From: Planctomycetota bacterium
GTDB lineage: Bacteria; Planctomycetota; GCA-002687715; CAIWVZ01
Direction of reading: 5' to 3'
NCBI GenBank assembly: GCA_044222185.1
Contig: JBGANV010000002.1
Span: forward strand, 544,001-608,000
DNA: 64,000 nucleotides
The notes beneath the pieces were generated by a model. It made no database searches, had not been told where the DNA came from, and saw only the letters and a list, made by a program, of their open reading frames with translations. The position numbers and the translations under genes were made by a program. Shown one piece after another: positions 13,963 to 35,447 of this stretch. The number at the start of each line of letters is the position of its first letter. Position 1 is the stretch's first letter.

Positions 13963-15366
13963 TCACACTCCGAGCACGAGCGCCAGGGCGTTCGTCAGCG
14001 TGAGTCCGAGCGGTGCGCCGCCGTCGATCGTGACGGCTTGAACCGCCGGGGCCAGGCCCGCGACGCCCGGGTCCGGGGGAATGGGAACCGGGAAGGCGAC
14101 GCTGCCCGTGGGATTGGCCGTCCCCGCGAGGATCGGGTTCAGTCCGGCGTTGATGAAGCCCACGAGGCTCGGGACGTCGACCCAGATCGAGCAGCCTCCG
14201 CCGATCGGTGTTGGCGGTGCGATCGTCGCTGAAAGGAAGACCGCCACGCCAGCCGATGGGAGCGCGCCGCCGATGGCAAGTCCGAAACCGGCGTTGCCGA
14301 GCGTGGGCGTCCCGATGGCGGAGAGGACGGGCGTGTTCGCCGCGCTCCCCGTGCATCCCGATCCGTGCGGCAAGGCGACCGCGATCGGGTAGCCGACGAT
14401 GGGCGCACGGAAGACCGCGATGCGCACCGACGCAACCGTCACGCCGTGTCCCGTAGCCGGTCCGAATGCGATCGTCGCGGCACTGGGCCCGCTGGGCGCG
14501 TTGGCGACGACGACGTTGTCGTTGTTCGTCTGCACGCCGAAGGGAACGCCGCCGATGACGGCGCCACCGACGGCCACGCCGTACACGAGGCCCGTGGTCG
14601 GTTCGAACTTCGCTTCGCCGGTTCCAGTGATCTCCGGCGCGTCCATCACGGGGTTCTGGAGCAGCCCGGAGAACGACCATCGCGTCACGGATCCTGCAGT
14701 CGCGCTTCCCGCCGAGAGGAAGATGTCGCCGGACATGGGGCTCACGGCGAGGCCATTGCGGTTCGTCGGGCCGCCGACGAGCCGGTCCGGCGCGGGCGCA
14801 GTTGCGCCACTGCTCACGAACCACGTGGCGGTCGCCGAGGTGACGAGTACGTTCCCTCCCGGGAGCGCCGCGATGGCTGCGGCGGAGGTCTGGCCCGTGG
14901 CGAAGGCCTGCAATGTCGAGCCGACCCCGATGGGGGCCGCAAGTCGCATGATGTCGCCGTTGCCAAAGAGCACGTAGACGTCACCGCTCACGACGTCGGC
15001 GTCCAGATCGCGGACCTGTTTCGACGGCCCGTTCACGATCAGCGTGGACGTGGGGTTGGATAGCGACGCGGAGAAATCGAGCAGGTAGATCGAGTATCCG
15101 ACGACGGCGCCGAGGGGAGCCTGCGCGGTGCTCATGAGGGCGAAGTTCGACCCCGGCAAGTGCTCGATCTGGCGGCTCGTCGCGGTCGTGCTCAGGCTCG
15201 TTCCGACAGGTGCTGTGAATGGGGTCGAGCTGGAACCGCGGATGTGGACGGCGGTGCTGATGCCGGCCAGCAGGACATCGCCGGGTTGGAGCTGGGCACT
15301 CGCGGCGCAAGCGAGGATCACGGCGGTCGAAAGGAAGCGCAGGATCGGGACGGCGGTTTTCGTCAT
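13963..15366 (-). CDS. Secreted beta-propeller-like protein with shared C-terminal domain
   Basis: Signal peptide (...ACAASA-Q), beta-rich repeats, C-terminus IPPDPGVAGLAPAVQAV...TNALALVLGV. Confidence 0.75.
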   Translation of the reverse strand: MTKTAVPILRFLSTAVILACAASAQLQPGDVLLAGISTAVHIRGSSSTPFTAPVGTSLSTTATSRQIEHLPGSNFALMSTAQAPLGAVVGYSIYLLDFSASLSNPTSTLIVNGPSKQVRDLDADVVSGDVYVLFGNGDIMRLAAPIGVGSTLQAFATGQTSAAAIAALPGGNVLVTSATATWFVSSGATAPAPDRLVGGPTNRNGLAVSPMSGDIFLSAGSATAGSVTRWSFSGLLQNPVMDAPEITGTGEAKFEPTTGLVYGVAVGGAVIGGVPFGVQTNNDNVVVANAPSGPSAATIAFGPATGHGVTVASVRIAVFRAPIVGYPIAVALPHGSGCTGSAANTPVLSAIGTPTLGNAGFGLAIGGALPSAGVAVFLSATIAPPTPIGGGCSIWVDVPSLVGFINAGLNPILAGTANPTGSVAFPVPIPPDPGVAGLAPAVQAVTIDGGAPLGLTLTNALALVLGV

Positions 15367-15534
15367 GACGGCAACCCTCGGGGCAGGCTCGGGGGATCGT
15401 ACACGCAGAAATCCGGGCGTGGGTGGGGAACCTCCGGGCTCCGCGCCTCAGCCGGTGTGACGAGTTAAGTTCCCCGCCGCTCGGACCGTCGTGGCGCACG
15501 TGCGCCCGATCTCGGTGACTGGAAGATCGACTCG

Positions 15535-16248
15535 ATGAATTTGGACGCCGTTTCCTGGAATCTGATCGGGGCTGCGGTGGTGATCGCCATCACCCACACC
15601 GCGCTCGGTCCGGACCATTTTCTTCCGTTCATCATGCTGTCGAGGGCGCGGCGGTGGAGCGTCGCTCGGACGCTCTGGATCACCGCGGGATGCGGAGTGG
15701 CGCACGTGTCCTCGTCGCTGATGCTCGGGGTCGTCGGCGTCGCGGTCGGGATGGGGGTTGGCGCCATCCACGGGCTGGAAGATGTACGCGGGACGCTGGC
15801 GGGTTGGGCCATGCTCGCGTTTGGCCTGGCCTACGGGACGTGGGGGGTGCGGCGCGCGGTGCGCCACCAAGACGGCGTCGAGCTGCACGATCACGGCGGG
15901 CACGTTCACGTTCACCACGATGGCGGACCCGGGCACGTCCACGAAGGGCGACCGACTGCCGATCGGAACACGGCGTTCTGGACACTTTTCATTCTGTTCG
16001 TCCTCGGACCATGCGAGCCGTTGGTTCCATTGGTGATCCTGCCCGCGAGCCAGGGGCGCTGGCAGTTGGCGGGCCTCGTCTCGGCTGTGTTCGCCGCTGC
16101 AACCGTCGTCACGATGCTCGTCATCGTGGCGCTGGCGCACGCGGGCCTGGCGCACGTGCGCCGGGGGCGTCTGGAGCGCTGGTCGCACTCGCTGGCCGGA
16201 GCCGTGATCGCTGCGTCGGGTGCCGGGATGGTCTTCCTGGGAATGTGA
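15535..16248 (+). CDS. Nickel/cobalt transporter-like membrane protein (NiCoT/RcnA/UreH-like)
   Basis: About 6 TM. HTALGPDH resembles the NiCoT HxxxxDH signature; His-rich loop HDHGGHVHVHH; GPCEP motif. Confidence 0.75.
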   Translation: MNLDAVSWNLIGAAVVIAITHTALGPDHFLPFIMLSRARRWSVARTLWITAGCGVAHVSSSLMLGVVGVAVGMGVGAIHGLEDVRGTLAGWAMLAFGLAYGTWGVRRAVRHQDGVELHDHGGHVHVHHDGGPGHVHEGRPTADRNTAFWTLFILFVLGPCEPLVPLVILPASQGRWQLAGLVSAVFAAATVVTMLVIVALAHAGLAHVRRGRLERWSHSLAGAVIAASGAGMVFLGM

Positions 16249-16611
16249 CGCGCTCCGGTGCGCCCGGCCATGGGGGCGGCGCGCGGCATAGAACGCGCGA
16301 ACGTCGATGTCCATTTCTCGCACGCTCGCGGACCGGGCGGCGCGAACGCCAGCGTCCAGCAGTGTTGCGACGGACACGCAGGGTCGGAGGTGGAAGTCCG
16401 CAAGCGGGCGCCGGGTCCGCGCCCGGGGAGCCAAGGCTCCTCCTCACGCCCGACAGGGCGTCGAGGCCGACTGCCACGGTTCATTCGAGGCGCTGGTCGT
16501 CGGCGAGTGCCACGTCGCTCGCCGAGCCGTAGCGACCGAAGGGTGGCGCACACCCTCAGACGATCCGCCCTGATTCCGATCGCAGTCCCGCGCGTCGTGA
16601 CGCGCCGCACC

Positions 16612-16926
16612 TGGCGCGCGTGCGCCACTCAGCGATCCTCCAGCGGACGTCGGGCGTGACGATCGATCGGGGGACTGAGGCGTCGGTCGTCGGGCGCGCG
16701 GGACCGTCGGCGATCTTTGGCGCACGTGCGCCAGGACCGTGCGCCGGACCGTGCGCCAGGACCGTGCGCCACTCGGCCAGATTTCGGCGGGTGGCGGGCG
16801 TGACGAGAAACCAGCCAACTGCGGCGTCCGTCGTCGAGCATGTGGGGGCTTCGGCGATCGGTGGCGCGCGTGCGCCAGTCGGCGCGTTGGGCCATGCATC
16901 AAACCATGCGCCGGGCCATGCGCCGG
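16612..16926. repeat. REP/BIME-like cluster of TGGCGCRCGTGCGCCA palindromes with related spacers and short tandem repeats
   Basis: Palindromes at 16612, 16718 (perfect 16-bp) and 16862. Spacers share CGGGCGTGACGA, GGCGTCSGTCGTCG and TCGGCGATC. GGACCGTGCGCC occurs three times at about 16735-16770. Lies between convergent genes. Confidence 0.8.
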
Positions 16927-16960
16927 CAGTCGTCGAAGCCGACGAACCTTCGGCGCGGGG

Positions 16961-17971
16961 TTACCGCCCCCTGACCTTCTTCGCCCCGGCGAGAAACACC
17001 TCCCAATCGAAAGCGGGGCCGGGGTCGTACTTCTGATCGTCCAGGTGATAGTGACCGACGATCCCTTCGAACGACGATCGCAAGGGTTCGACGAGCTCAT
17101 TCGTGACGACCTTGCCCGATCGGTCGCGCGGCACCTCGAGCTTGATCCGCGGAAACACCGCCCTGAGCCCCGCGGCCAGACGCCACAGGGATTCGTATTG
17201 CGCCTTGGTGAAGTCGTACTGGACGAACTTGGAGCGCTGGATCGTTCCCGACAACAACTGTGGTCGCGCCGGCCTGGGGATCGCATCGCGACGAAACTGA
17301 AGCCCGAGCCGAGCCCGCTCGGGGAAGAGGTTGCGGATCTCGCCGGTCGCGTCGGGCGCATACCACTCTTCGAGAAGTTTGGGCGTCGACATCGCTCCGA
17401 TGTTCGCGATCTCGACGCCGATCGACCGATCGTTCGCGTCCTTGGCGTGGAACGCCCGGTCGCGAAGGTCCAGCGTCTGATAGATCGTCCCATCGAGGTC
17501 GAGCATGAAGTGGACGGAGAGCCCGCGGTTGTCGTGAAGGGCGCGGAAGCAACGCTCAGAACTTCCGACGGCGTCGTAGTGCAGGACGAACTGGTGGATC
17601 TGTTCTCGAAGCTCGGGGAGACCCCATCCATGGTCGCGCAGCCGCCTGAGCGCCGCGGCACCGAGTCCCACGGGCGCACGTGCGCCATACCGCAGGTTCG
17701 AAGCCGCGGGCCGGCTCGCCAGGTCGGACGGCAACTCCTGATTGCTGAAGCGGCACTTCGTCGAATACGCGTTGAACCCGACACGGTCGCTCCAAAGGAT
17801 CACGGGCGTGCCGATGTCGAATCGCTCGTCGCAGACCACGATCGCGGTGGTCGGGATGAAGGGCGGCTCCGGTGGCGGGGCGGGCGCCGGCACCGGTGCC
17901 GGCGTCTTTTTTCCGCATCCTGTGAGGGCGAGGGCGATCAGGAGCGCGAGAGACGGGATGCTGCAACGCAT
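16961..17971 (-). CDS. N-acetylmuramoyl-L-alanine amidase (Amidase_2) lipoprotein
   Basis: Lipobox ALTG-C, Pro linker, Zn-amidase motifs FVLHYD, SVHF, AFHA, NDRSIGVEI, VGHYH...KYDPG. Confidence 0.9.
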   Translation of the reverse strand: MRCSIPSLALLIALALTGCGKKTPAPVPAPAPPPEPPFIPTTAIVVCDERFDIGTPVILWSDRVGFNAYSTKCRFSNQELPSDLASRPAASNLRYGARAPVGLGAAALRRLRDHGWGLPELREQIHQFVLHYDAVGSSERCFRALHDNRGLSVHFMLDLDGTIYQTLDLRDRAFHAKDANDRSIGVEIANIGAMSTPKLLEEWYAPDATGEIRNLFPERARLGLQFRRDAIPRPARPQLLSGTIQRSKFVQYDFTKAQYESLWRLAAGLRAVFPRIKLEVPRDRSGKVVTNELVEPLRSSFEGIVGHYHLDDQKYDPGPAFDWEVFLAGAKKVRGR

Positions 17972-18143
17972 GGCGGTGAAAAGGCCGGCGATTGTAGCCG
18001 GCACGGGTCGGCGGGCACGGAGCGCCATTTCTCGCCGCCCGTAGGGGGAGAGCCACCCTCCGCACGTTCGGTCAGAATGTGTGCATCCCCGTGAAACGTT
18101 CGATCATCGGCGGGATGTCATGAACTGAACCCGGCGTGCACCC

Positions 18144-21100
18144 ATGTCGTCATCCATGCCATTTCGCAACCTCGAGGAAACCGTGCGCTCGCACGGCGCA
18201 TTCGTGCGCAATCTCGCGCGGCGACTCGTCCTCGGCGACGACAAGGCCGGCGACCTGGAGCAGCAGACCTGGCTCGCGGCCATGGAGAGCCCGCCGCGCC
18301 GCGCCGGTGTGCGCGGCTGGCTCGCGACGGTCGTGCGGAATTTCGCGCGACGCGCGCATCGCGCGGAGGTGCGGCGCGAGCACCGCGAGAGCGTAGCGGC
18401 CCGGCCCGAGGCGATCTCGTCCGCGGCGGACGTGGTGCAGCGGCAGGCCGTCATCCGACAGGTGATCGACGCCGTGTTCGCGCTGGAGGAGCCCTATCGC
18501 TCGACGCTCCTTCTACATTTCTACGAGAACCTGCAGCCGGCCGAGATCGCGGAGCAACTCGGCGTTCCGGCAGCCACCGTGCGCACGCGTTTGAAGCGCG
18601 GGCTCGACCAGCTACGCGACTGGTTCGACGCACGACACGGCGGCGATCGCGATCAGTGGACGATGGCGCTGATGCCCGTGGCACTTGGCGCGCTCAAGCC
18701 CGTCGTCGCGGCAGCCGCTGCGGCGGGCGCAGGCGCGGCACTCACCACGGCGGCGGCGTCAACCACGCCAATCACGGCACTCGGAGGCATCATCGTGGCG
18801 AAGAAGATCGGGATCGCGCTGGGCGCGTGTTGCGTGCTGGCCGTTTCAGTCATCGTGTGGAAGCAGATCGTGGTTGCCCCGGATCCCGTCGATCCGGGCA
18901 CCGTTTCGGTCCGCGAGGTTCCCTCGACGGAGCGCACGGCGTTCAACGACGGCGGGAAACCGGTGACGCCCATCGATGGCGCGAAGGTGACGGCCAAGCC
19001 ATTCGTCCCGACCGGCGATGAGATGACGCCCAGCGCCATGGCGATCGCGGCCGGCAAGCCCACGGCCCGCATCACCGGGCGCGTCGTCGATGAAGAGGGC
19101 CGGCCCGTGGCGGATGCGGCGGTCACGATGGACCTCTCGGAGAGCCGGTCGGGCGTGGATGCCGTGGTCGAGAACGTCGTCGAGGGCGGTGACAATCGCA
19201 CGACGCGGACGACGACGGACGGGCGCTTCCACTTCGCCGGAGTCCCCGTGGACTTCGACGCGAGCGTCCATGTGAAGCCGACGACGCTTTGTGACGCCAA
19301 CCGGACGGTGCCGGTGACCAAGCCCGTCGACGTGGACATGGGCGACCTCGTCGCAAAGCGCGGCGGGACGCTCGCGGGCCAGGTCCTCGGTCCGACGGGC
19401 GCACCGATCAAGGGCGCCAAGGTCCGCGCCTGGACGCCCGCCAAGAGCGGCAGCCCTGGGATCATGATCTTCGGTGGAGGATTCCCGGGCGGCGGCGAGG
19501 GCCGCAGCACCGTCACGGATGCAGATGGCCGTTATCGGATCGAAGGGATTGCGGAAGGCCCGTGCTCGGCCGCCGCCAGCGCCGAAGACTGCCAGGTCCT
19601 CACTCGCACCGGGCTTCGCGTGACGAAAGGCCAGGTGACGTGGGAGGCCGACTTCAAGCTCGCGGCCGGCACCGTCATCGAAGGCGTGGTGCGCAACCCC
19701 GACGGCAAGCCCGTGGCCGGAGCGCGCGTCAGCGCCCGGCCGGCGGCGCTCACCATCGGAGTGGATCGCGGCGGGCTGAGCGGCGAACGCCGCGAGGTCG
19801 TCACGGGCGCCGACGGGCGATTCGTCGTTCGCGGACTGAGTGACGAACCCCAGGCCGTTCGCGCCCGCGTTCCAGGTTTCCTTCCCGGCGACGCCGCATC
19901 CGTCCCGCCTGGGACGACGGATCTGGTGTTGGCGCTGCGCCCGAGCGCGCTCGTCTGGGGAATCCTCGCCGACTCGACCAATGGCAGGCCAGTCGCCGAC
20001 TTCACTGCCAGCACGGGAACGATGTTCTTCGGGCCGAACGGCGGACCGGGAACCCGCGTGTGGAAGGGCGCCGAGGCCGCTCAGGCGGCGAACGTCGCCG
20101 ACCAGCCCGGCCTCTTTGCGGTCACGGACGTCCCGGAATCGGGCATGACTCTGCGCTTCGTCGCCAAGGGCTACGGCACGACGTCGTTCGAGACCAAGCC
20201 GACGCCCGGCGAGAAGATCGAGATCAAGCCGCGCCTCATCCCCGAGTGCGTGGTCAGCGGGCTCGTCGTCGACCCGAGCGGCAACCCGGTGGCGGGAGCC
20301 CGCGTCGTCGTCGCGACCCTGAAGCCCGAGCGTGACGAGGCTCGCGATGCAGGTCCGACGGGCGTGCGGGTCGCGCGTCGCGTCGTGCGCCGGGAAGTCG
20401 TCGCGGGTTCCCCGGGCGGCGGCGGACTCAAGATCGAGGAAACGCCGTCGAATGGGAGCGCCGAGACGGGCCCCGATGGCAGCTTCAGGATCGGTGGTCT
20501 GCGGGAAGGCGAATTCACGATCGTTGCCATGCATCGCGAGTACGCCGACGTCAAAGGCGACAACATCACGCTGAAGCCCGGCGCGCCGCTCGAGAATCTC
20601 AAGCTGTCGTTGATGCCTGCAGGGAAGCTCGCGGGTACCGCACTCGACGCGGACGGTCGGCCGCTGGCCGGCGCCAAGGTGTATGCGGAGCGCCAGACGG
20701 AGGGCGGCGCGAACGGACCAGGCAACGAGTTCGACTTCGGCAGTGATCTGCGGCAGACCGCAGTCGCCGACGCCCGCGGGCACTACGAGATCACGGCGCT
20801 CATGCCAGGCGACTACCGTGCGGGCATCGTCGAGCGGCCACGGGGCGGCGGCATGGTCATGTTCATGGGCAACGGCAGTCGGGACGGCGCGAAGACCGGC
20901 ACGGAAGTGAAGATCGAGGCGGGCAAGACGACGACGCAGGATCTGCGGCAGGCGCCCAAGGGCGGCCTCGCCGGAGTGATCCGCGAAGCCGGCAAGCCGG
21001 CCGTCGGCGTGAAGGTCTCACTGGCTCAGGACGGCCTCGGCGGCTTCGTCTTCGGCGGCGGAATGAGCACGACCACGGACGACGCCGGCGCCTACTCGTT

Positions 21101-21833
21101 CGAGGGCGTCGACCCCGGCAACTACGACCTCAGCGTGGATCCTCCGGGAGCGGCGCAGCCGATCGCGCGCCCCACGACCATCGCCATGCGACAGGAAACG
21201 CGCCTCGACGTGGATCTGCCCACGGGATCCATCGAGGGCGTCATCGTCGACAAGAACACCCGCAAGCCGGTCGCGGGCCTCGAAGTGAAGGCACAACCCG
21301 CGAGCAAGCCGGGCGAGCAGACACGAACCGTGCGCGCGTTCGCCGTCAGCATCGCCAACAACGGCGACGAGCCGCAGTCGATCACGTTCGGCAGCGACAA
21401 CTCGAGCGTCCGGACGGACGAGGCCGGGCACTTCGTGCTGAAGTACCTGGAGGCGAAGGACTACGTCGTCTCCGCCGAAGGCAACGGGTACATGAAGACG
21501 TCGAAGGACTCGGTCACGGTGGAGGAGGGGAAGGCCACCAAGGGCGTGAACCTCGACACGGAGAAGGGGGCGACGATCATCGTGACGCCCGACCTCGGCG
21601 GCAAGACGGCGTCGTTCTTCCTCGGAGAGTTGTCCCTCGTCGATGCGAAGGATGAGGAGTCGAAGCACGAGAGCGGCAGCCCCCGCAAGCCCATCAAGTT
21701 CACGGGGCTGAAGGCGGGCCGGTATCGCATCCGCGTTCACGTGCCGCAGGATGGTGACGAAGAGCTGTCCGGCGAGACCACGATCGACGTGGCTCCGGGC
21801 GCAGAGATGAAGGTGCCACTCCGATTGAACTGA
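18144..21833 (+). CDS. ECF sigma-70 factor fused to a TM segment and multiple carboxypeptidase-regulatory-like beta-sandwich repeats
   Basis: Region 2 (DLEQQTWL, GWLATVVRN) and region 4 (LEEPYRSTLLLHFYENL...EIAEQLGVPAATVRTRLKRG), a TM near aa 222-240, then repeated G.V.D..G.PVAGA.V...T..DGRF units. Confidence 0.9.
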   Translation: MSSSMPFRNLEETVRSHGAFVRNLARRLVLGDDKAGDLEQQTWLAAMESPPRRAGVRGWLATVVRNFARRAHRAEVRREHRESVAARPEAISSAADVVQRQAVIRQVIDAVFALEEPYRSTLLLHFYENLQPAEIAEQLGVPAATVRTRLKRGLDQLRDWFDARHGGDRDQWTMALMPVALGALKPVVAAAAAAGAGAALTTAAASTTPITALGGIIVAKKIGIALGACCVLAVSVIVWKQIVVAPDPVDPGTVSVREVPSTERTAFNDGGKPVTPIDGAKVTAKPFVPTGDEMTPSAMAIAAGKPTARITGRVVDEEGRPVADAAVTMDLSESRSGVDAVVENVVEGGDNRTTRTTTDGRFHFAGVPVDFDASVHVKPTTLCDANRTVPVTKPVDVDMGDLVAKRGGTLAGQVLGPTGAPIKGAKVRAWTPAKSGSPGIMIFGGGFPGGGEGRSTVTDADGRYRIEGIAEGPCSAAASAEDCQVLTRTGLRVTKGQVTWEADFKLAAGTVIEGVVRNPDGKPVAGARVSARPAALTIGVDRGGLSGERREVVTGADGRFVVRGLSDEPQAVRARVPGFLPGDAASVPPGTTDLVLALRPSALVWGILADSTNGRPVADFTASTGTMFFGPNGGPGTRVWKGAEAAQAANVADQPGLFAVTDVPESGMTLRFVAKGYGTTSFETKPTPGEKIEIKPRLIPECVVSGLVVDPSGNPVAGARVVVATLKPERDEARDAGPTGVRVARRVVRREVVAGSPGGGGLKIEETPSNGSAETGPDGSFRIGGLREGEFTIVAMHREYADVKGDNITLKPGAPLENLKLSLMPAGKLAGTALDADGRPLAGAKVYAERQTEGGANGPGNEFDFGSDLRQTAVADARGHYEITALMPGDYRAGIVERPRGGGMVMFMGNGSRDGAKTGTEVKIEAGKTTTQDLRQAPKGGLAGVIREAGKPAVGVKVSLAQDGLGGFVFGGGMSTTTDDAGAYSFEGVDPGNYDLSVDPPGAAQPIARPTTIAMRQETRLDVDLPTGSIEGVIVDKNTRKPVAGLEVKAQPASKPGEQTRTVRAFAVSIANNGDEPQSITFGSDNSSVRTDEAGHFVLKYLEAKDYVVSAEGNGYMKTSKDSVTVEEGKATKGVNLDTEKGATIIVTPDLGGKTASFFLGELSLVDAKDEESKHESGSPRKPIKFTGLKAGRYRIRVHVPQDGDEELSGETTIDVAPGAEMKVPLRLN

Positions 21834-21843
21834 GAGATCGCGC

Positions 21844-22788
21844 TCAGTGTTCCGCGCAGCGGTTCACTTCCACGGTCACGTGGGTGAGCTCGTGGATGCC
21901 GGCCAGGCTCTCGCGGACGCGCTCGGGTTCGATCGCCTCGTGAGCGACCAGTGAGAGCTGGCACGCGAGCTGGCCCGGGCCGAACTCCCAGATGTGGACG
22001 TCGGCCACGTCCGCGTCCCAGCTCTGGCTGATCGTTTCCCGCACGGCCGACTCCACGCCGCAACTCGGGGTGAAGTCCAACAGCGTGCGGCTCGAATCGC
22101 GGATGAGGCCGATGGTCCACACGAGGACGAGCCCCATGCCCACGAGTCCGATCAGCGGATCGAGGAGCGTCCAGCCCATGGCGCGTCCGCCCCAGAGAGC
22201 GAGGATCGCGAGGACGCTCGTGCAGGCGTCGGCGACGACGTGGAGGAACGCCGCCCGATGGTTGTGGTCCCGTGCCGCATGCACGTGGCCGGTCGTGTGC
22301 GCGTGCCCGTGGTCCGCCTCGTGAGGCTCGTCGTCGCGAAGCAGCCACGCGCTCACGACGTTGACGAGGAGGCCGGCCACCGCCGTGGTCAGCGCCGCAT
22401 CGAATCCGATGGGGATGGGTCGGATCAGCCGCTCCACACTCTGCCAGCCCGTCGCGAGGGCGATGCCCCCAAGGATCAGCGCGGAGGTGTATCCGCCCAG
22501 CGCGTTGAGCTTCCCGGTCCCGAAGCTCATGCGGGACCGGAAGCGCGCACTGCGGCTCGCCACGTAGACGAGCCATGCCAGCGCCATCGCGACCGCGTGG
22601 GACGACATGTGCCAGCCGTCCGCGACGAGTGCCATGGAGCCCGTCGCATACCCGACCACCAGTTCGATGATCATCGTGACCACCGTTAGGATCAGCACCC
22701 AGCGCGTCGCACGTTCGCGTCCGGGAGCGTGGCTCGTGTGCGTGTCGTGGAGTCGACTCCACCGCTCGGTCTGCGTCGGGTGCTTCAC
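21844..22788 (-). CDS. dmeF: CDF family Co/Ni efflux transporter (DmeF-like)
   Basis: SMALVADGWHMSSH, FGTGKL..LGGYTSA, His-rich loop, DHNHRAAFLHVVADA, C-terminal HVTVEVN. Confidence 0.88.
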   Translation of the reverse strand: MKHPTQTERWSRLHDTHTSHAPGRERATRWVLILTVVTMIIELVVGYATGSMALVADGWHMSSHAVAMALAWLVYVASRSARFRSRMSFGTGKLNALGGYTSALILGGIALATGWQSVERLIRPIPIGFDAALTTAVAGLLVNVVSAWLLRDDEPHEADHGHAHTTGHVHAARDHNHRAAFLHVVADACTSVLAILALWGGRAMGWTLLDPLIGLVGMGLVLVWTIGLIRDSSRTLLDFTPSCGVESAVRETISQSWDADVADVHIWEFGPGQLACQLSLVAHEAIEPERVRESLAGIHELTHVTVEVNRCAEH

Positions 22789-27014: not shown

Positions 27015-27491
27015 ATGATCCGCAACACCCTCGTCGTCGCGTCCTTGATGCTCGCCCTCGTCGCCGTTCCCGCCGCAGCCCAGACCGTCGAAGCCGGTGG
27101 CATGCCGGGCTGCCATCTGGTCGACCTGACCCCGACAGACAGCTTCACGCTGGGCACGACCTCGATCTTCCAGATCCAGGCCGGCGCGGTCGGGATCGAA
27201 GGCTACTTCTGCACCGTGTGGCAGGAGTACGCGCCGTGGGACAACGTCCCCCACGCCATGGCCGGCATCGGCGGGGAGCTCCTGATCAACCAGAACCGGA
27301 ACTTCCGGATCTTCTCCGAGGGCGGCCCGCTCACCGGGGGCCTCTTCCCGGGTCAGTCGGTCGTGATGTCGTACACCTTCCCCCAGGACCCGTCGCTGAT
27401 CGGTGTGCAGTTCGTCGTCCAGGCCTACGTGACCAACGAAACCCGCACGACGCACAACTTCACGAACGCACTCGTCGGCACCGTGAAGTGA
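27015..27491 (+). CDS. Small secreted protein consisting mostly of the shared C-terminal domain
   Basis: AAGGAG RBS, signal peptide (...VPAAA-Q), C-terminus FPQDPSLIGVQFVVQAY...TNALVGTVK. Confidence 0.8.
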   Translation: MIRNTLVVASLMLALVAVPAAAQTVEAGGMPGCHLVDLTPTDSFTLGTTSIFQIQAGAVGIEGYFCTVWQEYAPWDNVPHAMAGIGGELLINQNRNFRIFSEGGPLTGGLFPGQSVVMSYTFPQDPSLIGVQFVVQAYVTNETRTTHNFTNALVGTVK

Positions 27492-27551: not shown

Positions 27552-27935
27552 GCGGGCCAGTGGGCGTAGCTCCGCCCCTCCGGCCTACGCAGCCCTGCCC
27601 CCCGAGTGCTTCGCCGCATGTCGCGGTCCGCAAGCGACCACGCCGAGGCATGATCGGTTCGCTGCCGCTCCCGCGGCATCTCCCGCGCTTCGTCACCCCC
27701 TCGCTGCGCAGGAGTGCGATGCTCCCTCGACCGACCGAGAGTCCTGCCCGAAAGGGCGCCGTTCTGGATTCTCGTCGGGTGGCCGTACGATCCGGCCTAT
27801 GCCGTGTCGGCGGTCACGCCGGGTGGAGCATCGCTCTCGCGCGCAGCGGAACCTCGCGTGACCCCGGGCGTCTGAGGGCGGTCGCCGGCGGTGTCGGGTC
27901 ACCGATTCGGGCCGGCGCTGCCACGGAGCCCTCGC

Positions 27936-28784
27936 ATGAAAGCCTCGATCGCCTTGCTTCCCATCCTCCTGTTCCCGATGACCGGCGGAGCGCCAGGGAT
28001 CCCACGGATGCGCGACATCATCCCGCCGGGGATGAAGTCCGTGCGCTTCGAGCTCGTGTTCGAGGCCCCGGCCCCGGGCGCCAGCCTTTGCCGTGCCTAC
28101 GTGGTGCTCGCCGGTGACACGTTCGAGGGCATCGCGAGGAAGCAATGCGGGGACGCGCGGTGCAGCGACGAGATCGCGCTGCTCAACCCGAACATGAAGC
28201 CCGAGCGGCTGAAGCCAGGCTCCACGCTGGCGATCCCGCCGAAGCCATCTGCGGACTCCCGTCCAGCCTCGCGCCCCGATGGCGCATCCCGCGAGCCGCG
28301 TCTCCTCATGCACCTCACGCCGTCGGGGATTCTCCAGCCGAAGACGCCCGTCCCGATCCTGGAGGGGCAGATCCTGGGGGCGTTCCGCGGCCAATGCCGC
28401 GTGATCGCCGTTCCGCGGTCGGGGCTGCGTGCGGCCATGGCGTTGGACTGGACGACCGTCGACTTCGCGCATCCGCCCGCCGGCGTGAACGTATCTCCAC
28501 CGTTCACCGCCACCTCCCTTGTCGCGCACGAGGATCCGGCCGTCCGCGTCGAAGCCCGGATCGTCGTGACGTCGATCGAGGACGGGCAGGTGGCGCTCGA
28601 CCGTCACGAGCGGTGGTACGACGAGGACAAGAGGCTCACGCGCGAGAAGACGGTGCAGAACGGCGTCACGAAGACGCGGGGTGGGGCCGTGCCCTGGCCA
28701 CTCGCGCTGATCGGCGGCGGAGCGCTGATCGGAGTCCTCGGGATCGCGCGACGGCGGCGGACCCGCGCGGCCTGCTGCGCGTGA
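27936..28784 (+). CDS. LysM-domain surface protein with C-terminal TM and basic tail
   Basis: LysM YVVLAGDTFEGIARK...LNP...LKPGSTLAIP. C-terminus WPLALIGGGALIGVLGIARRRR. Confidence 0.82.
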   Translation: MKASIALLPILLFPMTGGAPGIPRMRDIIPPGMKSVRFELVFEAPAPGASLCRAYVVLAGDTFEGIARKQCGDARCSDEIALLNPNMKPERLKPGSTLAIPPKPSADSRPASRPDGASREPRLLMHLTPSGILQPKTPVPILEGQILGAFRGQCRVIAVPRSGLRAAMALDWTTVDFAHPPAGVNVSPPFTATSLVAHEDPAVRVEARIVVTSIEDGQVALDRHERWYDEDKRLTREKTVQNGVTKTRGGAVPWPLALIGGGALIGVLGIARRRRTRAACCA

Positions 28785-28812
28785 CATCGCGGCGACCTCC
28801 CCGAGCGCATCG

Positions 28813-29814
28813 ATGAGCCTCAGAACGACGTTGGCGATCGCAGCGGTCTCGTTGCTCCTGGCCCTCGGCTGCGCGGTGGCTCCCCTGTTCGCGTACGTGG
28901 CCACGTTGGCGACCTTCGGCCTGGCGCACGTGCTGCTGGAACTGCGCTACGTGGACCAGCGATTCACTCCACGCCTGGGCCGTGCGACCGTCGGCGCCAT
29001 CGTCACCCTGCTCGGCGCCACCGCGCTGCTCCGCGTCGTGGCGTACCTGCCCGGGACGCGGTCGCTGCCGCTTCGCGAGATGGAGCTCGGTGCGGTCGCC
29101 ATGCTGGCCGCCGTCGCGCTCGCCGTCGGGTTGCGGCGCGGCGACGCCATGGCCGGCGTGCTCGGTGCCGCGACCGTGTGCGCGATCGCGTGGGGATTGA
29201 TGGAGTCACCTTCGAGCACCCTCGTGGTGCTGGCCGTCCTCCACAACCTCACGCCCGTGGGATTCCTCGCCGAACGATTGCACGGACGCGAGCGGCGTGC
29301 GGCGATGGCGTCATGCGCGTTCGTCTTCGGCGTCGTCCCGGCGTTGATCGCGAGCGGCGTGGTCTCGGCGCTCGTGCAGCGGCTGGGCTCGTGGTCGCCG
29401 GATCTGACTCCCCTCGACGTGGGGACACTCGACCTCCACCTGGGCGTCTTCGTTCCGAGCCCGTGGATCGACGGCCCCTCGGCCATCGATTTGTTCTCGG
29501 CGGCGGCGTACCTGCAATGCGTTCACTACGCGGTCGTGATCGGAGTGTTGCCGCGGCTCGGAACAGCCCACGGCGAGGCCGGTCGCTCCAGCCTCGTCCG
29601 CTGGCCGCGCGGTGCGCCGTGGGCCCGGTACGTCGTCACGGCCTCAGTCCTGGGGTGTGCGGCGTTCGCGTCCGAATTCGTCGACGCGCGCCGCCTCTAC
29701 GGGATCGCATCCGCCGTTCATGCGTGGAGCGAGCTGCCGGTGCTGCTCCTGTCGGCTGGCGGAGGCATCTCCATGGGGCGGGCGCCGCGCCGCGGAAGCA
29801 TCGCTCCCGCATGA
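28813..29814 (+). CDS. Polytopic membrane protein with four spaced His motifs
   Basis: About 9 TM; motifs FGLAHVLLELRY, LHNLTP, QCVHY, HAWSELP. Confidence 0.75.
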   Translation: MSLRTTLAIAAVSLLLALGCAVAPLFAYVATLATFGLAHVLLELRYVDQRFTPRLGRATVGAIVTLLGATALLRVVAYLPGTRSLPLREMELGAVAMLAAVALAVGLRRGDAMAGVLGAATVCAIAWGLMESPSSTLVVLAVLHNLTPVGFLAERLHGRERRAAMASCAFVFGVVPALIASGVVSALVQRLGSWSPDLTPLDVGTLDLHLGVFVPSPWIDGPSAIDLFSAAAYLQCVHYAVVIGVLPRLGTAHGEAGRSSLVRWPRGAPWARYVVTASVLGCAAFASEFVDARRLYGIASAVHAWSELPVLLLSAGGGISMGRAPRRGSIAPA

Positions 29815-30116
29815 TTCACTACCTCGGCACCCTCGGGCTCACGCTCGCCGTGGAGGTCGTCGTCGCCCTCTTCGTCATCCCGCGCTCGATGTGGCGTCGC
29901 CGGATCGGGGACGTCGTGCTTGCGAACCTGGTGACCCACCCGTTGGCCACCCTCGCCGTTCGCGCCTTCCTGACCCCGTGGATCGTGGCCGAGATGTCGG
30001 TGATGGGGGCGGAGGCCGTGATCTATCGCTACCTCTCGGGGTTCGGCTGGCGCCGGGCGGTCACCCTCTCCGTCGCCTGCAATCTCGTGACGGCGTTGCT
30101 GTCGTTCCTCGTGTGA
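29811..30116 (+). CDS. Small 4-TM membrane protein (E...ANLVTHP...E..V...E...N)
   Basis: ATGA overlap with the upstream gene. 101 aa, hydrophobic, with intramembrane Glu/Asn/His residues. Confidence 0.75.
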   Translation: MIHYLGTLGLTLAVEVVVALFVIPRSMWRRRIGDVVLANLVTHPLATLAVRAFLTPWIVAEMSVMGAEAVIYRYLSGFGWRRAVTLSVACNLVTALLSFLV

Positions 30117-30189
30117 CGGCCAGAGGGTTCGAGGCGCAAACCGCCTCCGCCGCTCGTCGCGGGGGGCGACTGCGTACACAATGCGACCG

Positions 30190-31059
30190 ATGAGTGCCAC
30201 CGGGTTCCGCATCGGATACGCGACGAGCGGGTTCTCCTCACATCGCCTCGAGGATGCACTCGACGTGCTGGCGAGGCTCGGGTACGGGGGCGTCTCGCTC
30301 ACTCTCGACGTGCAGCACCTCGATCCGTTCGCACCGGACCTCGCCGCGCGCGTGGCCCACATCCGCGCGCGGCTCGACCGGCTCGGCCTCTCGGTCGTGG
30401 TGGAGACGGGCGCGCGCTTCATCCTCGATCCCATGCGCAAGCACCATCCGACGCTGCTCTCGCGCGAGGGTTCGGAGCGGCGGCGGGAGTTCCTGTGCCT
30501 TGCAATCGACGTCGCCCGCGATCTCGGCGCCGAGGGCGTATCGCTGTGGGCCGGCGCACGTCCGGCCGACATGAGTGACGGCGAGGCATGGGATCGATTG
30601 TTGATCGGGCTCGACCAGGTGCTCGATCACGGCTCGCGGGCGGGCGTTCGCGTGGGGCTCGAACCCGAGCCCGGGATGCTCGTCGACACCGTCGCGGGCT
30701 GGCGCAGGCTCGCAGAGCGGTTGGGCGGACGGGAGCGACTCGGGCTGAGCCTCGACATCGGACACTTGCTGGTGAACGGCGAGGCCGAACCGGCGGACGT
30801 CATCCGCGCCGAAGCTCCCCACCTCGTCACGGTCGCCATCGAGGACATGAAGCGGGGAATCCACGAACACCTTCCGTTCGGTGAAGGTGACCTGGACCTT
30901 CCGACCACGCTCGCTGCACTCCGCGACTGCGGATACGGCGGCCTCGTCGCCGTCGAACTGGCGAGGCATGGACACGACGCCGTGAGGGTGGCTACGGCCT
31001 GCCGGGAAGTCCTGGCGAAGCACGGCGTCTCATTCCGAGGTCGCTCCACGCACTCATGA
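30190..31059 (+). CDS. Sugar phosphate isomerase/epimerase (xylose isomerase-like TIM barrel)
   Basis: ETGARF, GLEPEPGM, LDIGH, IEDM...HEHLPFGEG, VEL. Resembles the isomerases of ebo-like inositol clusters. Start 30181 or 30190. Confidence 0.85.
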   Translation: MSATGFRIGYATSGFSSHRLEDALDVLARLGYGGVSLTLDVQHLDPFAPDLAARVAHIRARLDRLGLSVVVETGARFILDPMRKHHPTLLSREGSERRREFLCLAIDVARDLGAEGVSLWAGARPADMSDGEAWDRLLIGLDQVLDHGSRAGVRVGLEPEPGMLVDTVAGWRRLAERLGGRERLGLSLDIGHLLVNGEAEPADVIRAEAPHLVTVAIEDMKRGIHEHLPFGEGDLDLPTTLAALRDCGYGGLVAVELARHGHDAVRVATACREVLAKHGVSFRGRSTHS

Positions 31060-32117
31060 TTCCGCTCCTCGGCCTCGCGTTGTTCGCGATCTCGTTCGGT
31101 GTGGCCGCGGGACTGCTTCCGTGGATCCGCCGGCGCGCCGTCACGGCCGGCGCCGTCGACCGACCCGATGGGGGACGGAAGGACCACGCCGAAGCCGTCG
31201 CCTACGGCGGCGGAGTGGCCGTCCTCGCGGCGATCGCGGTTCCGGTCGGCCTGGGCATTCTCGTTGCGCTGATCGGGGGCGATGCCTCCTGGGTGCCGGA
31301 GGCGATCCGAATCCACTCGCCTGGAATCCGCCAGCAGGCACCGCAGGTCGCCGCCATCCTCGGTGGCGCGGCCGTGATGATGGTGATGGGCTGGATCGAC
31401 GATCGCCGGAGGCTCCCCGCGGTGCCGCGCCTCATCGTCGAGATTCTCGCGGCGCTCGCCCTGGCCCTCAGCGGGGTCCGTGTCACCGCCTTCCTGCCGG
31501 AGCCGTGGATGCACGTGGCGGCGACGGTCGTCTTCGTCGTGTTCGCGACGAACGCGACCAACTTCATCGACAACATGAACGGGCAGCTCACGGGGGTGGC
31601 GGCGATCCAGACCGCTGGCTTCCTCGCGATCGCCGCCAGCTCGGGCCAGCTCTTCGTGGCCGCGAGTCTCATCTGCCTTTTGGGAGGCCTTCTGGCCTTC
31701 CTGCCGTGGAATTTTCCCCGCGCGCGGATCTTCCTCGGCGATGCCGGCAGTCTGCCCATCGGGTTTCTACTCTCGGCGCTGACGATCACCTGCAGGTTCC
31801 AGGACGGCGGCATCACGGCGCGGCCCTTCGTCGTGCCGATCCTCCTTTTGTTCGTTCCGCTGGTCGACGGATGCGTCGTCGTCGTGTCACGGTTGCGGCG
31901 CGGAGTCCACCCGTTCACGGCAGGCCACGATCACCTGGCGCACCGCATCGCGGCGCGCGGGCGGACGCGGACTTCCGCCGTCGTCGTGTTGTGGGGTTTC
32001 AGCGCGGCGGCGGCGGCGCTCGCCCTGCTGGTGAGCCGTCCCGCTCCGCTCGTGACGCTCGTCTGTGTCGCGCCGGTCGCCGTGGTGTTGAGCGCCGTCG
32101 CGCGCCGCCCCCCGTGA
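31056..32117 (+). CDS. WecA/MraY-family polyprenyl-phosphate HexNAc-1-phosphate transferase
   Basis: RKDH...GGG, GWIDD, NATNFIDNMNG, IFLGDAGS, DHLAHR. Confidence 0.9.
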   Translation: MIPLLGLALFAISFGVAAGLLPWIRRRAVTAGAVDRPDGGRKDHAEAVAYGGGVAVLAAIAVPVGLGILVALIGGDASWVPEAIRIHSPGIRQQAPQVAAILGGAAVMMVMGWIDDRRRLPAVPRLIVEILAALALALSGVRVTAFLPEPWMHVAATVVFVVFATNATNFIDNMNGQLTGVAAIQTAGFLAIAASSGQLFVAASLICLLGGLLAFLPWNFPRARIFLGDAGSLPIGFLLSALTITCRFQDGGITARPFVVPILLLFVPLVDGCVVVVSRLRRGVHPFTAGHDHLAHRIAARGRTRTSAVVVLWGFSAAAAALALLVSRPAPLVTLVCVAPVAVVLSAVARRPP

Positions 32118-32175
32118 GTTCGCCGCGACCCCGGGGCTCGTCACCGGGACGACGCGCGCTCACAATGCTCGCCTG

Positions 32176-33930
32176 ATGACGCCGCGGCCCTCCAGTCTCC
32201 TCACCTCCGCTGCCATCGCCCTGCTCATGGCTGGCGTCGGCGCGCGCTTCCTGCTCGGTGACGACCTGAACCCGCTCGTCGAATCGTTCGCGACGGCGCT
32301 GATGCTCCTGGGCGGTGGCCTGGCGCTCCTGTGCGGCGTGATGGAAGGGCGGGCGCCTGCGCCCATCCTGGTCGTTCTCGTCGTCGTGCTGATGCTGCCG
32401 GCAGCGTCACCGATGGAGAGCTTCACGATCAAGCGCGCCGCGGACGTGCTGGCTGCGACGGTCGCGGGTTTGGCGCTCATGGACCTCGTGAGCGTTCGTC
32501 GGATGGGCAACCAGGTTCGACGAGTCCTCGTCGCTGCGGCCATCGCGTTGAGCTGGTTCGGTATCGCGCAGTCGGCGTGGCTGAACGCGTCGGCGGAGGC
32601 CGCGGCGCGCGCGGTGGGACACGCGCTCACGAAGACCGAGCGGGGCGAGGCGTTCCTCCACTCCTGGCGTGCCGCCGCCACGTTCACGTCGGCGAACCAC
32701 TTCGCCGGGTTCCTCCTGCTCGTGGCTCCCGCCGTCGTGGGTGCGTGGTTGAGGGGGCGCCGGCGTGCGGCGGCGTCGATCGCGGCAATTTCGTGCGTCG
32801 CGGCATTCGCATGCGCCGGATCCGCCGGTGGCGCGGGCGCCCTTGCGATCGGCGGTTGCGTGGCGACATGGCGGATGAGTCCGCCCGGGACGAACTCGCG
32901 CCGACGTTGGCGGATCGCGAGCGCTGGGGTTGCATTGGTCGGCCTCGGAATCGTCATCCTCGCGTCGGCCCACGTGGGCGGCGGCAAACTCGCCACGCTC
33001 GCAGAGAGGCTCGATTACCACCGCCTGGCGCTGCGCGTCCTCGCGGAGCACGTGCCGTTTGGGTGCGGGCTGGAGGCGACCCGCACGTGGATGTCCAGCG
33101 CCCACCGCGCAGGTGAGGCGTTCAGCCGATCCCCGCACGACTGGTGGCTGCAGGGACTGGTCGAGTGCGGCATCGTGTTCTTCGGCGTGGCCGCGATCCT
33201 CGTCCGGGTCGTTTGGCGTTCGCTGCAGGCGCCCCAGACCGAGCCGGTCGGGGACGGCGATCCGCCCTCGCGAGTCGTCGCCTGGGGACTGCTCGGAGGG
33301 GTGCTGCTGTCGGCGGCGCTGGCTCCGTTCGTCACATTCCTTCCTGCGACGGCGGGAATCGCTCAGGCAGTCGATGCCGGTGTCACACTCGCCGTGCTCG
33401 CAGGCGCGTGGTGCCTTGCGGGGGGCGTGGCGACGGACTCGCCGGGCTTTCGGTCGGGTCTGCGCGTCGGGCTCGCGGCGTTCCTCGTCCACGGGTTCCT
33501 GGATTCGGACCTCCTTCAGCCCGGGGTGATGATCACGCTGGCGCTCGTTCTTTCCGCCGTTCGCGGCCCCGCATCGCAGGACGTCGCACGCACGAGCGGG
33601 CGCGTCGCGACGATCGGGCTTGGCCTGGCGGCAATCCTCGCCGCGGTGCCCATCGTGCAGCTGGGCGCCGGGCGTCAACTGGTAGCGGACGTGGTCATCG
33701 AGGGGCCGCAGACCGAGATCACCTCCGATCACCTGGACCAGCTGTTTCGTGCCCCGCTCGGCCCCATTCCGGATTTGCGGGCCGCAGCGGCGGTGTGGCC
33801 TGACGATCCGACGAGCGCTCAGGCGATCGCGATGGCGCAGCGGATCGCTGATTCCTGGTCGCGCGGCATCCGCCGGCGCCCCGACGCGCGCGCGTTGATC
33901 GACCGGTTGGAGCGCCTGAAGGCGCGTTGA
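32176..33930 (+). CDS. O-antigen ligase (Wzy_C)-like membrane protein
   Basis: Multi-TM. ATFTSANHFAGFL, ERLDY, PFGCG, SPHDWWLQGLVECG. Confidence 0.78.
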   Translation: MTPRPSSLLTSAAIALLMAGVGARFLLGDDLNPLVESFATALMLLGGGLALLCGVMEGRAPAPILVVLVVVLMLPAASPMESFTIKRAADVLAATVAGLALMDLVSVRRMGNQVRRVLVAAAIALSWFGIAQSAWLNASAEAAARAVGHALTKTERGEAFLHSWRAAATFTSANHFAGFLLLVAPAVVGAWLRGRRRAAASIAAISCVAAFACAGSAGGAGALAIGGCVATWRMSPPGTNSRRRWRIASAGVALVGLGIVILASAHVGGGKLATLAERLDYHRLALRVLAEHVPFGCGLEATRTWMSSAHRAGEAFSRSPHDWWLQGLVECGIVFFGVAAILVRVVWRSLQAPQTEPVGDGDPPSRVVAWGLLGGVLLSAALAPFVTFLPATAGIAQAVDAGVTLAVLAGAWCLAGGVATDSPGFRSGLRVGLAAFLVHGFLDSDLLQPGVMITLALVLSAVRGPASQDVARTSGRVATIGLGLAAILAAVPIVQLGAGRQLVADVVIEGPQTEITSDHLDQLFRAPLGPIPDLRAAAAVWPDDPTSAQAIAMAQRIADSWSRGIRRRPDARALIDRLERLKAR

Positions 33931-33992
33931 GGTCCCTTCGATTCTCGGCGTTGCTGGCCGGTATACTCCCCGTCCCAACACGAGGGTTGAAC

Positions 33993-35447
33993 ATGCGAAC
34001 GCGACTCGTCGGGCTCGGTTGTGCATTCATGATGGCTCTCTCCGTGTCGGTGGCGGCTCAACAGAGCGTGCCCTTCACGCGCAGCGGAGATGTCCTCGTC
34101 GTCGACACGGTCGGTGATCGCATCGTCCGTCTACAGGACCTGGATTTGGACGGCGCTTTCACGAGCCCGGGCGAGTCGACCGTGTTCTTCCAGAGCGGCA
34201 CGAACGGGATCACGGTCACGAACGTGAACGCCATCGCCACGGCGGAGGACGGCACGGTCTACCTGTCGGATCCGACGGCGCATCTCGTGGTGCGCCTGAA
34301 GGACGTCGACGGCGACGGGGCGGCCATGGCAGCGAACGAAAGCCAGGTGTTCTTCAGCGCCGCCAACGGGTCGGGCATCTTCCTCGCGCTGAACTGGGCG
34401 TTGGCATGTTCGACGGACGGCTTCGTCTACGTCGCGCAGGCGAACAACGCGACCGGCGGCTTCGACTCCGTCATGCGTCTGCGCGACCTCAACAACGACG
34501 GCGATGCGGAAGATGCAGGCGAAGCGGTCGACTATGCGCGGTTCGCCGTCGGTGGTGCGGTTGCCGACTCCGTTCCCTCGGGCCTCGCCATCGGCAACGA
34601 CGGAACCCTCTACTACGTCAACAACGGAACGAGCGGAGCCGTCGCCAAGGGCGTCTATCGCATGCACGACGACGTGATCCCCAACGGCGTGTGCACCGAT
34701 CCGGGTGAAGTGTCGATCTTCTTCACACCGACGGCCGTCCCGAGCGTCACGTCGCAGTACTGGTCCCTCACGACCGACCGAAGCGGCAACTTCTTCCTGC
34801 ACGACACGGGCGCCGAGCGCATCATCAAGTTCAACGACCTGAACGCGGACCTGGTGATCCAGAACGCGTCCGAGTCCCTGATCTACTACTCGGTGCCGAG
34901 TGCGTCGAACATGTGGGGCTCGGCGCTCGCGTCCGACGGCACGCTGTTCGTCTGCGAAGATCAGTCACCGGACCGGGTGTACGCGTTGCGTGACCTCGAT
35001 CAGAACGGCGACTGCCTCGGCGTGAACGAGAAGACCGACGCGTTCACGTTCCCGACGTCGGGCACGAGCGCGATCTACTCGCCGCGGGCGATCACCACGA
35101 TGAAGGGGCCCGGGTTGCGCATGAATCCGTTGCCGATCCAGATCGGCAACAACGCCACCCTGACGATGGAGGGAACGGCCGGCGAAGCGATGAACGTCTA
35201 CATGTCGCTGGGGACGCTCAACCTGCCCGTCCCGCCGTTCGGAACCCTCGGCATCGACGTGTTCACGCCGGGCCTCTACCTGGAGTTCGTCCCGCTGTTC
35301 CCCACGAGCCCGCCGGGCTCCGACGCCCTCACGCTGGGCATCCCATCGGATCCGAACCTCCTCGCGCTCACGGTGTACCTGCAAGCGATCGGCGGCGCGC
35401 CGAGCCGGCTGCTGTTGTCGAACACGCTCACGGTGACGTTCCAGTAG
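33993..35447 (+). CDS. Secreted beta-propeller protein with DxDxDG Ca-binding-like loops and shared C-terminal domain
   Basis: Signal peptide; repeated RL.DLDxDG...GE motifs; C-terminus IPSDPNLLALTVYLQAI...SNTLTVTFQ. Confidence 0.8.
   Translation: MRTRLVGLGCAFMMALSVSVAAQQSVPFTRSGDVLVVDTVGDRIVRLQDLDLDGAFTSPGESTVFFQSGTNGITVTNVNAIATAEDGTVYLSDPTAHLVVRLKDVDGDGAAMAANESQVFFSAANGSGIFLALNWALACSTDGFVYVAQANNATGGFDSVMRLRDLNNDGDAEDAGEAVDYARFAVGGAVADSVPSGLAIGNDGTLYYVNNGTSGAVAKGVYRMHDDVIPNGVCTDPGEVSIFFTPTAVPSVTSQYWSLTTDRSGNFFLHDTGAERIIKFNDLNADLVIQNASESLIYYSVPSASNMWGSALASDGTLFVCEDQSPDRVYALRDLDQNGDCLGVNEKTDAFTFPTSGTSAIYSPRAITTMKGPGLRMNPLPIQIGNNATLTMEGTAGEAMNVYMSLGTLNLPVPPFGTLGIDVFTPGLYLEFVPLFPTSPPGSDALTLGIPSDPNLLALTVYLQAIGGAPSRLLLSNTLTVTFQ

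Follow-up and report, generated by a model that had tools for sequence, protein, structure and literature searches.

Dockerins (PF00404), the calcium-binding helical duplications of cellulosomal bacteria, dock on cohesins and serve docking, not translocation. S-layer homology (SLH) and LysM modules tether exported proteins to a wall polymer and can sit at either protein end, proteins with PEP-CTERM, LPXTG and other short C-terminal sorting signals end in a short motif, then a transmembrane helix and then a basic tail, and generic immunoglobulin (Ig)-like modules usually occur in arrays, at any position. In type IX secretion system (T9SS) cargo, the C-terminal domain (CTD) is described in the available text of PMC11285876 as a compact, Ig-like 3+4 sandwich of seven strands. 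For the cell-bound sulfatase Amuc_0953 of Akkermansia muciniphila, the available text of PMC13524802 remarks that an AF3 model of the final domain is similar to T9SS CTDs, and that this bacterium may have a system of a comparable kind. Here we describe a domain shared by three proteins that are encoded in a 64,000-nucleotide stretch from a Planctomycetota bacterium (assembly GCA_044222185.1, contig JBGANV010000002.1, positions 544,001 to 608,000); this whole stretch is hereafter called the window, and positions refer to it.

The domain family is real, very large and without a database name. Our results favor, with a confidence that stops just short of an even chance, the hypothesis that the domain is an envelope docking or retention module for exported proteins, which we infer from its architecture. 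Its closest functional analogue is the T9SS CTD, from which it is set apart by its sequence and by not being confined to the C-terminus. Three lines of evidence tilt the interpretation from a translocation signal to a docking module: the same residues are conserved irrespective of position, stand-alone copies exist, and some of the cargo is of periplasmic type. To our knowledge, the placement of the very large exported proteomes of planctomycetes in their unusually complex envelope is poorly understood, and the domain provides a handle on that question.

The three window proteins and their shared domain

A first-pass annotation of the window had claimed that three secreted proteins with different N-terminal regions end in a common domain of 110-130 aa. 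The three open reading frames (ORFs), with their signal peptides and the tails quoted for them, were all confirmed by translation, and their third-position G+C of 0.84-0.89 displays a coding pattern. P0001 (13963..15366, minus strand, 467 aa) consists of a signal peptide (residues 1-24, ending in ASA followed by Q; 15295..15366; translation and signal-peptide heuristic), a cargo region of ∼308 aa and the terminal domain (residues 333-467, with Cys338 and Cys392; 13966..14370; profile hidden Markov model (HMM) and alignment). P0003 (33993..35447, plus strand, 484 aa) is organized likewise, with a signal peptide (residues 1-22, ending in VAA followed by Q; 33993..34058; translation), a repeat-rich cargo and a terminal domain without cysteines (residues 371-484; 35103..35444; HMM and alignment). 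For these two proteins the claim of different N-terminal regions stands. It does not hold for P0002 (27015..27491, plus strand, 158 aa), where the signal peptide (residues 1-22, ending in AAA followed by Q; 27015..27080; translation) leads after ∼6 residues into a copy of the domain that is divergent (residues 28-158, containing Cys33 and Cys66; 27096..27488; alignment, and in part a leave-out HMM), and no separate cargo region is present. Many copies begin with a GxGC motif that lies ∼25 aa upstream of the first boundaries, and the length of the domain was accordingly revised to ∼115-135 aa.

No Pfam or NCBIfam family was found in P0001, its cargo included, and the cargo yielded only a weak lead to an NHL/DUF6923-type beta-propeller (scores 0.84 or less). 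The N-terminal part of the P0003 cargo gave weak matches to DUF7133 and TIGR02604, both below cut-off. P0002 has three paralogues elsewhere in the genome, and the neighborhood of the single gene-called one shares nothing with that of P0002, the other two being uncalled. Among 22 other genomes of the same order, 7 have homologues of P0003; the domain is kept in eight of nine distinct homologues and the ninth has an unrecognized tail, which disfavors tail swapping among them.

Pairwise BLASTP similarity among the three proteins is weak (E 1e-4, 0.013 and 0.056), as would be the case if their resemblance were due to chance or were a compositional artefact of a genome with 68% G+C. However, an HMM built from 24 other copies of the genome, from which P0001, P0002, P0003 and their paralogues had been excluded, scored all three (Z=4066): P0001 with an E-value of 6e-26 over residues 351-466, P0003 with 1.5e-10 over residues 383-484, and P0002 with 3e-7, aligning residues 115-156 only, that is, the last 42 aligned residues. 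With these E-values the similarity is far beyond chance, and the shared domain of the first-pass annotation is thus real. The coding pattern given above, a confident fold model and 926 library proteins at E≤1e-10 (both described below) likewise speak against an artefact, and we regard that explanation as refuted. Judged from the alignments, P0002 is the most divergent of the three copies, and each of the three proteins is probably Sec-exported and contains a single copy of an Ig-like beta-sandwich domain that is uncatalogued.

The conserved features of the domain are [G]xGC ... PxLG ... GGC ... IPxDPxLxG-x5-QA ... [ST]N[AG]L-x-L-x-[LVIF]-G-x, the last element being C-terminal. When the 168 C-terminal copies of the genome were aligned with 30 extra upstream residues, two main cysteine columns emerged, with Cys in 61/168 and 63/168 copies and in both columns in 58; Cys338 and Cys392 of P0001 fall in these columns. 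Such co-variation between the upstream GxGC and the GGC motif suggests a disulfide bond in about a third of the copies, and consequently a domain that folds outside the cytoplasm. The C-terminal copies end in P, L, F, Q or Y and G occupies position -2 in 68/168 copies, against a background of 18% R and 9% K; a terminal aromatic beta-signal is absent from the ends of these 168 copies. A sorting signal of the PEP-CTERM or LPXTG type was considered and rejected, as the tails end in an uncharged, amphipathic beta-strand, with neither a terminal hydrophobic helix nor an Arg/Lys cluster.

An AlphaFold2 model of P0001 residues 349-467, made from an alignment of 31 copies, reached a predicted local distance difference test score (pLDDT) of 93 and a predicted template modeling score (pTM) of 0.80, and predicts a beta-sandwich of eight strands and one helix. 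The model of P0002 is all-beta and of low confidence (pLDDT 63). Foldseek found no PDB match to the P0001 domain model at E≤1e-3. In an exhaustive structural comparison the best match was a macroglobulin domain of TEP1r (Z 7.4), followed by many Ig, FN3 and macroglobulin domains, and the CTD of PorU (6za2_B) appeared amid these generic matches at rank 46 (Z 5.7, root-mean-square deviation 3.5, 88 residues). Given this long series of Ig, FN3 and macroglobulin matches, the predicted fold is best called a generic Ig-like sandwich, with which a T9SS CTD would be compatible. The model thus supports the beta-sandwich that the first-pass annotation had in mind, and shows no specific likeness to T9SS CTDs.

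Neither did sequence searches reveal a described relative. A PDB sequence profile search with the family gave a best E-value of 0.16, to antibody light chains; P0001, P0002 and P0003 had no hit at E≤1 to the T9SS tail models of Pfam and NCBIfam; and no Pfam match was listed on the terminal domain of the window proteins, of 111 library relatives or of 105 genome proteins. Named bacterial Ig-like or carbohydrate-binding modules gave no Pfam match over the domain in any scan, and among Pfam, NCBIfam and PDB sequences no characterized ligand-binding module matched it, a result that supports the first-pass annotation. The nearest clusters in the ESM Atlas are all named hypothetical protein and lack a Pfam family. 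Full-text searches of the literature gave no description of the domain, the nearest item being the Akkermansia remark in the available text of PMC13524802.

A generic fold is what would be expected if the domain were an ordinary, lineage-specific Ig-like module, serving as spacer or in adhesion or oligomerization, without a shared partner, its C-terminal bias and many copies being the outcome of domain shuffling and paralogue expansion. The best Z score of 7.4, the lack of Foldseek matches and the retention of the domain in P0003 homologues, which makes it a stable part of the protein, all agree with this explanation. It is less easily reconciled with the conservation of G, PxDP, Q and N, which are polar or turn residues, and its weight depends further on the position and abundance of the family.

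Position, cargo and distribution of the family

A profile search run for five rounds on every stop-to-stop ORF of the 7.08-Mb assembly (93.8% complete) gave 225 domains in 222 ORFs, with 160 ending at most 5 aa and 185 at most 15 aa from the stop. The domain is present in 204 of 4,066 called genes (∼5%), in 209 copies, and the large genome-wide family that had been predicted from the window thus exists. The three copies in 64 kb from which it had been predicted lie near the average for the genome (with 204 genes over 7.08 Mb, ∼1.8 would be expected in 64 kb), and the window contains no fourth copy. Divergent members are still missed by the profile, for example a 3,343-aa protein ending in ...SNALRVRLGF.

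In 168/204 genes the domain lies at the extreme C-terminus (≤15 aa from the end). Iteration does not create this pattern, because a non-iterated profile (A2) finds the same one, with 128 of 152 genes C-terminal. All of the 150 best library hits also have their domain end within 5 aa of the C-terminus. The expectation that the domain would always be terminal nevertheless failed for 36/204 genes (about 18%), which carry it N-terminally or internally; this goes part of the way towards the refutation that the first-pass annotation had named, a domain that is commonly internal. In ∼20 of these genes it comes straight after the signal peptide, with a Kelch propeller or a different module behind it. 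Three copies stand in tandem in one protein. Non-terminal copies preserve the conserved G, P, P, L, G and Q positions as well as terminal ones do, as exemplified by Q (31/41 versus 142/168) and P (31/41 versus 140/168). Finally, P0002, its paralogues and the library proteins P0041, P0049 and P0146 consist of a signal peptide and the domain, standing alone.

The pairing with signal peptides that had been proposed is borne out by the genome: a signal-peptide-like start was found in 195/222 family ORFs versus 133/600 control ORFs (≥300 aa), and under a stricter rule in 146/204 family genes versus 923/3,785 others. Glutamine is the polar residue that comes first behind the hydrophobic core in 103 of the 146 carriers, in 45/60 proteins of a second tail family (see below) and in 391 of the 923 other signal-peptide-like proteins, while Q makes up 9% of polar residues overall. 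This pattern resembles the Bacteroidetes Q-rule, which the available text of PMC5837995 presents as Bacteroidetes-specific; as listed, that paper does not contain the word Planctomycetes. No match to type I glutaminyl cyclase (PF05096) turned up in the genome.

Outside the domain the cargo is unrelated, as had been claimed: the 204 proteins divide into no fewer than 105 groups that share no similarity beyond it, 74 of them singletons. When one representative per group was scanned against Pfam, 43/105 had a family at E≤1e-7, among them FG-GAP, Kelch, TIG, CHRD, CARDB, CotH, CBM_2, LamG and arylsulfotransferase families, peptidases M10, M14 and S8, multicopper oxidase, di-haem cytochrome c peroxidase, multihaem cytochromes, soluble glucose/sorbosone dehydrogenase and the peptidoglycan amidase Amidase_3. 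In model Gram-negative bacteria di-haem cytochrome c peroxidase, multicopper oxidase, glucose/sorbosone dehydrogenase and Amidase_3 are periplasmic. Among the 150 best library relatives, the 111 with at least 200 aa were scanned as well, and 46/111 had a Pfam family, in a similar mix to which trypsin, astacin and RCC1 are added.

One carrier, P0020, has a Ser/Thr kinase domain, a transmembrane helix at about residues 377-400 and an outer region of ∼780 aa with the domain at its far end. From this arrangement the kinase domain would be cytoplasmic and the protein anchored in the inner membrane. P0020 is the sole carrier among 122 kinases. Ser/Thr protein kinases are very numerous in this genome, with 162 PF00069 matches, some of which represent two pieces of one gene; 122 called genes match the kinase query, most of them open frames of 850-1,500 aa.

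Beyond this genome, a metagenome library of 1.84 billion representatives of 50%-identity clusters contained 11,876 matching representatives at E≤1e-3, besides the 926 at E≤1e-10 mentioned above. The names and taxa in this library and in the ESM Atlas, where present, are Planctomycetota. A single-protein search for related loci returned one orthologue from a metagenome-assembled genome. Across 301 Planctomycetota genomes, with the best 15 matches per genome scored and kinship ignored in the counts, the domain was matched in 62, this genome included. Of the other 61, 48 had at least 10 scored matches, 6 had 3-8 and 7 had a single weak match. Some taxonomic families are positive throughout (f1 3/3, f2 5/5, f3 6/6, f8 7/7, f25 6/6), and others are negative or nearly so (f7 0/15, f24 0/10, f28 0/10, f15 1/15). 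Within the phylum the domain family is thus either abundant or not found, by whole taxonomic family.

These data bear on the ordinary Ig-like module without a shared partner that was considered above. The existence of N-terminal, internal and tandem copies, up to three per protein, would be natural for such a module, and no machinery emerged from the searches described in the next section. On the other hand, nearly all of the 209 copies in 204 genes are single and 168 form the very last domain, conservation of the residues named above spans at least 105 groups of unrelated cargo, and genomes have many copies or none, with ∼5% of the genes here being carriers. We consider this explanation fairly unlikely.

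The genome also encodes a second C-terminal tail family. Its 78 proteins all finish with the tail (e.g. ...NVASVTFQ); the family is at best remotely related to the domain (hhalign probability 47%) and has no member in the window. A third tail group, of 48 proteins, is related to the domain (hhalign probability 94%).

Docking module, secretion signal or sorting label

The domain resembles the T9SS CTDs of Bacteroidota in several respects. Both are small Ig-like sandwiches, ours by prediction, that come last on unrelated signal-peptide proteins, both have a conserved C-terminal strand and tens to hundreds of copies per genome, both are present or absent by lineage, and in both systems a second tail family exists in the same genome. 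There are also differences. There is no sequence match to the type A (PF18962 / TIGR04183) or type B (TIGR04131) models and no CHU_C-type tail was listed in the Pfam scans; the planctomycete domain is longer (115-135 aa) and has eight predicted strands and a helix in P0001 instead of seven strands; the non-terminal fraction and the stand-alone copies set it apart from T9SS CTDs; and the host phylum is Planctomycetota, with no SprA or PorP/SprF match in this genome, where the control genomes were silent as well. Amuc_0953 belongs to a bacterium of the PVC superphylum; the available text of PMC13524802 likens its final domain to T9SS CTDs, and any homology of it to the planctomycete domain would be conjectural.

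Dockerins provide the other comparison. They too are small modules on many unrelated exported proteins, mostly C-terminal and sometimes N-terminal or internal. Unlike them, the planctomycete domain is predicted to be a beta-sandwich, has no Pfam match and came with no identified cohesin-like receptor. SLH and LysM modules differ in fold and are not matched in sequence. By analogy, the domain resembles dockerins or wall-binding modules in its mostly terminal, sometimes other position and in a putative docking role.

According to our hypothesis, the carrier proteins would cross the cytoplasmic membrane by Sec, after which the domain would fold within the envelope, where about a third of the copies would form a disulfide. 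It would then attach the protein to a common envelope component, which may be peptidoglycan or some other wall polymer, a component of the outer membrane, or a scaffold protein. Under this hypothesis the domain would be no cleavable signal for export by way of an outer-membrane translocon.

The competing hypothesis that the domain is a true C-terminal secretion signal of the T9SS CTD type, recognized by a putative outer-membrane translocon and perhaps cleaved and swapped for a surface anchor, in the way that PorU takes off T9SS CTDs and the cargo is joined to anionic lipopolysaccharide, is part of what the first-pass annotation had proposed. Much of what was found agrees with it: the predominance of the extreme C-terminus in genome and library, signal peptides on most carriers, unrelated cargo, a sandwich fold with the PorU CTD among the structural matches, an abundance that is all or nothing by taxonomic family, and a second tail family that recalls type A and type B CTDs. 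Glutamine follows the signal peptide, as in Bacteroidota. The conserved C-terminal strand with its uncharged end has a parallel in the conserved C-terminal motif of T9SS CTDs (available text of PMC11285876), and in the available text of PMC13524802 a PVC bacterium, Akkermansia, is suggested to have a CTD-recognizing system. However, a signal of this kind does not readily account for 36 genes that carry the domain elsewhere with the same conserved residues, for stand-alone copies without cargo, for an inner-membrane-anchored kinase or for cargo of periplasmic type. We therefore find a secretion signal distinctly unlikely: position, signal peptides and cargo uphold the earlier proposal, and the internal and stand-alone copies, the kinase carrier and the periplasmic-type cargo do not. 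Export across the outer membrane is less likely, and surface or envelope attachment stays live.

Searches for a machinery point in the same direction. The models TIGR04189, PF14349, PF11751 and PF18962 had no match in the genome, which speaks only weakly against a secretion signal; 14 control genomes were equally silent and there was no positive control, so the absence of T9SS parts is not shown. In the neighborhoods of carrier genes none of 146 non-carrier paralogue families was enriched (best p 0.005 before correction for multiple testing). Outer-membrane candidates were collected by a C-terminal beta-signal-like end; 13 were scanned against Pfam, and three were profiled across 21 carrier and 19 non-carrier genomes. 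A FadL/Toluene_X-family protein (PF03349, E 1.3e-21; locus L056, G000:C1:1663341-1664777, minus strand) lies between two carrier genes, but was found in 2/21 carrier versus 4/19 non-carrier genomes. Two unnamed barrel candidates, L054 (8/21 versus 3/19) and L057 (7/21 versus 3/19), did not track the domain either. Secretins (PF00263) have eight matches in this genome and 2 to 13 per genome across 40 Planctomycetota genomes; since they are universal (40/40), with similar match counts in the two groups (about 7.3 and 6.0), they do not discriminate. The co-occurring outer-membrane machinery that the first-pass annotation had anticipated was accordingly not identified among these candidates, the secretins, the neighbors or, with their silent controls, the T9SS parts.

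The docking hypothesis should be interpreted with some caution, since a number of observations weigh against it. No binding partner or ligand emerged from the neighbor, T9SS and outer-membrane candidate searches. In 147/168 C-terminal copies just 1-5 residues follow the last strand, which fits a C-terminal signal too, and the avoidance of charge at the last residues hints that a free C-terminus matters. The 36 exceptions amount to about 18 cargo groups, with 22 of them in four paralogue groups; this concentration means that the non-C-terminal copies may be secondary re-uses of the domain. Much of the cargo looks extracellular (proteases, lectin-like and carbohydrate-binding modules), and PF23759 (GBD_T9SS_assoc), which otherwise accompanies T9SS cargo, is present on 6 of the 111 library proteins, on 5 of them over the cut-off. 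Moreover, the gene call is home-made and crude, its 4,066 genes having been chosen by third-position G+C, and the signal peptides were called by two home-made heuristic rules.

A broader hypothesis combines the domain with the second tail family, as the address label of an undiscovered protein-sorting or surface-anchoring machinery that would be confined to part of the Planctomycetota, functionally parallel to the T9SS and built from unrelated parts, and that would serve 5-8% of the proteome. We regard it as possible, if doubtful. Whichever role applies, the domain can be used as a reporter fusion, as bait for a partner and as a probe for phylogenetic profiling. It also merits a family entry, by which thousands of "hypothetical proteins" would become recognizable as envelope proteins.

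Other features of the window

Three further loci in the window deserve mention. At 20-5271 (plus strand) a TamB-like gene (1,060 aa) is followed, with an overlap of 22 bases, by an Omp85/POTRA gene (696 aa); together they look like an outer-membrane assembly pair of the translocation and assembly module (TAM) type. The ORF at 18144-21833 (plus strand) encodes 1,229 aa, in which regions 2 and 4 of an extracytoplasmic function (ECF) sigma-70 factor (residues ∼14-158) are joined to a long series of CarboxypepD_reg-type beta-sandwich repeats; it is an unusual fusion of a sigma factor with an apparently extracytoplasmic repeat region. Finally, a sulfatase-containing frame of 1,519 aa (55751-60310, minus strand) overlaps a Kelch-repeat frame of 684 aa (59338-61392, minus strand) by ∼970 bases. 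As both are on the same strand, at least one of the two listed starts must lie too far upstream.

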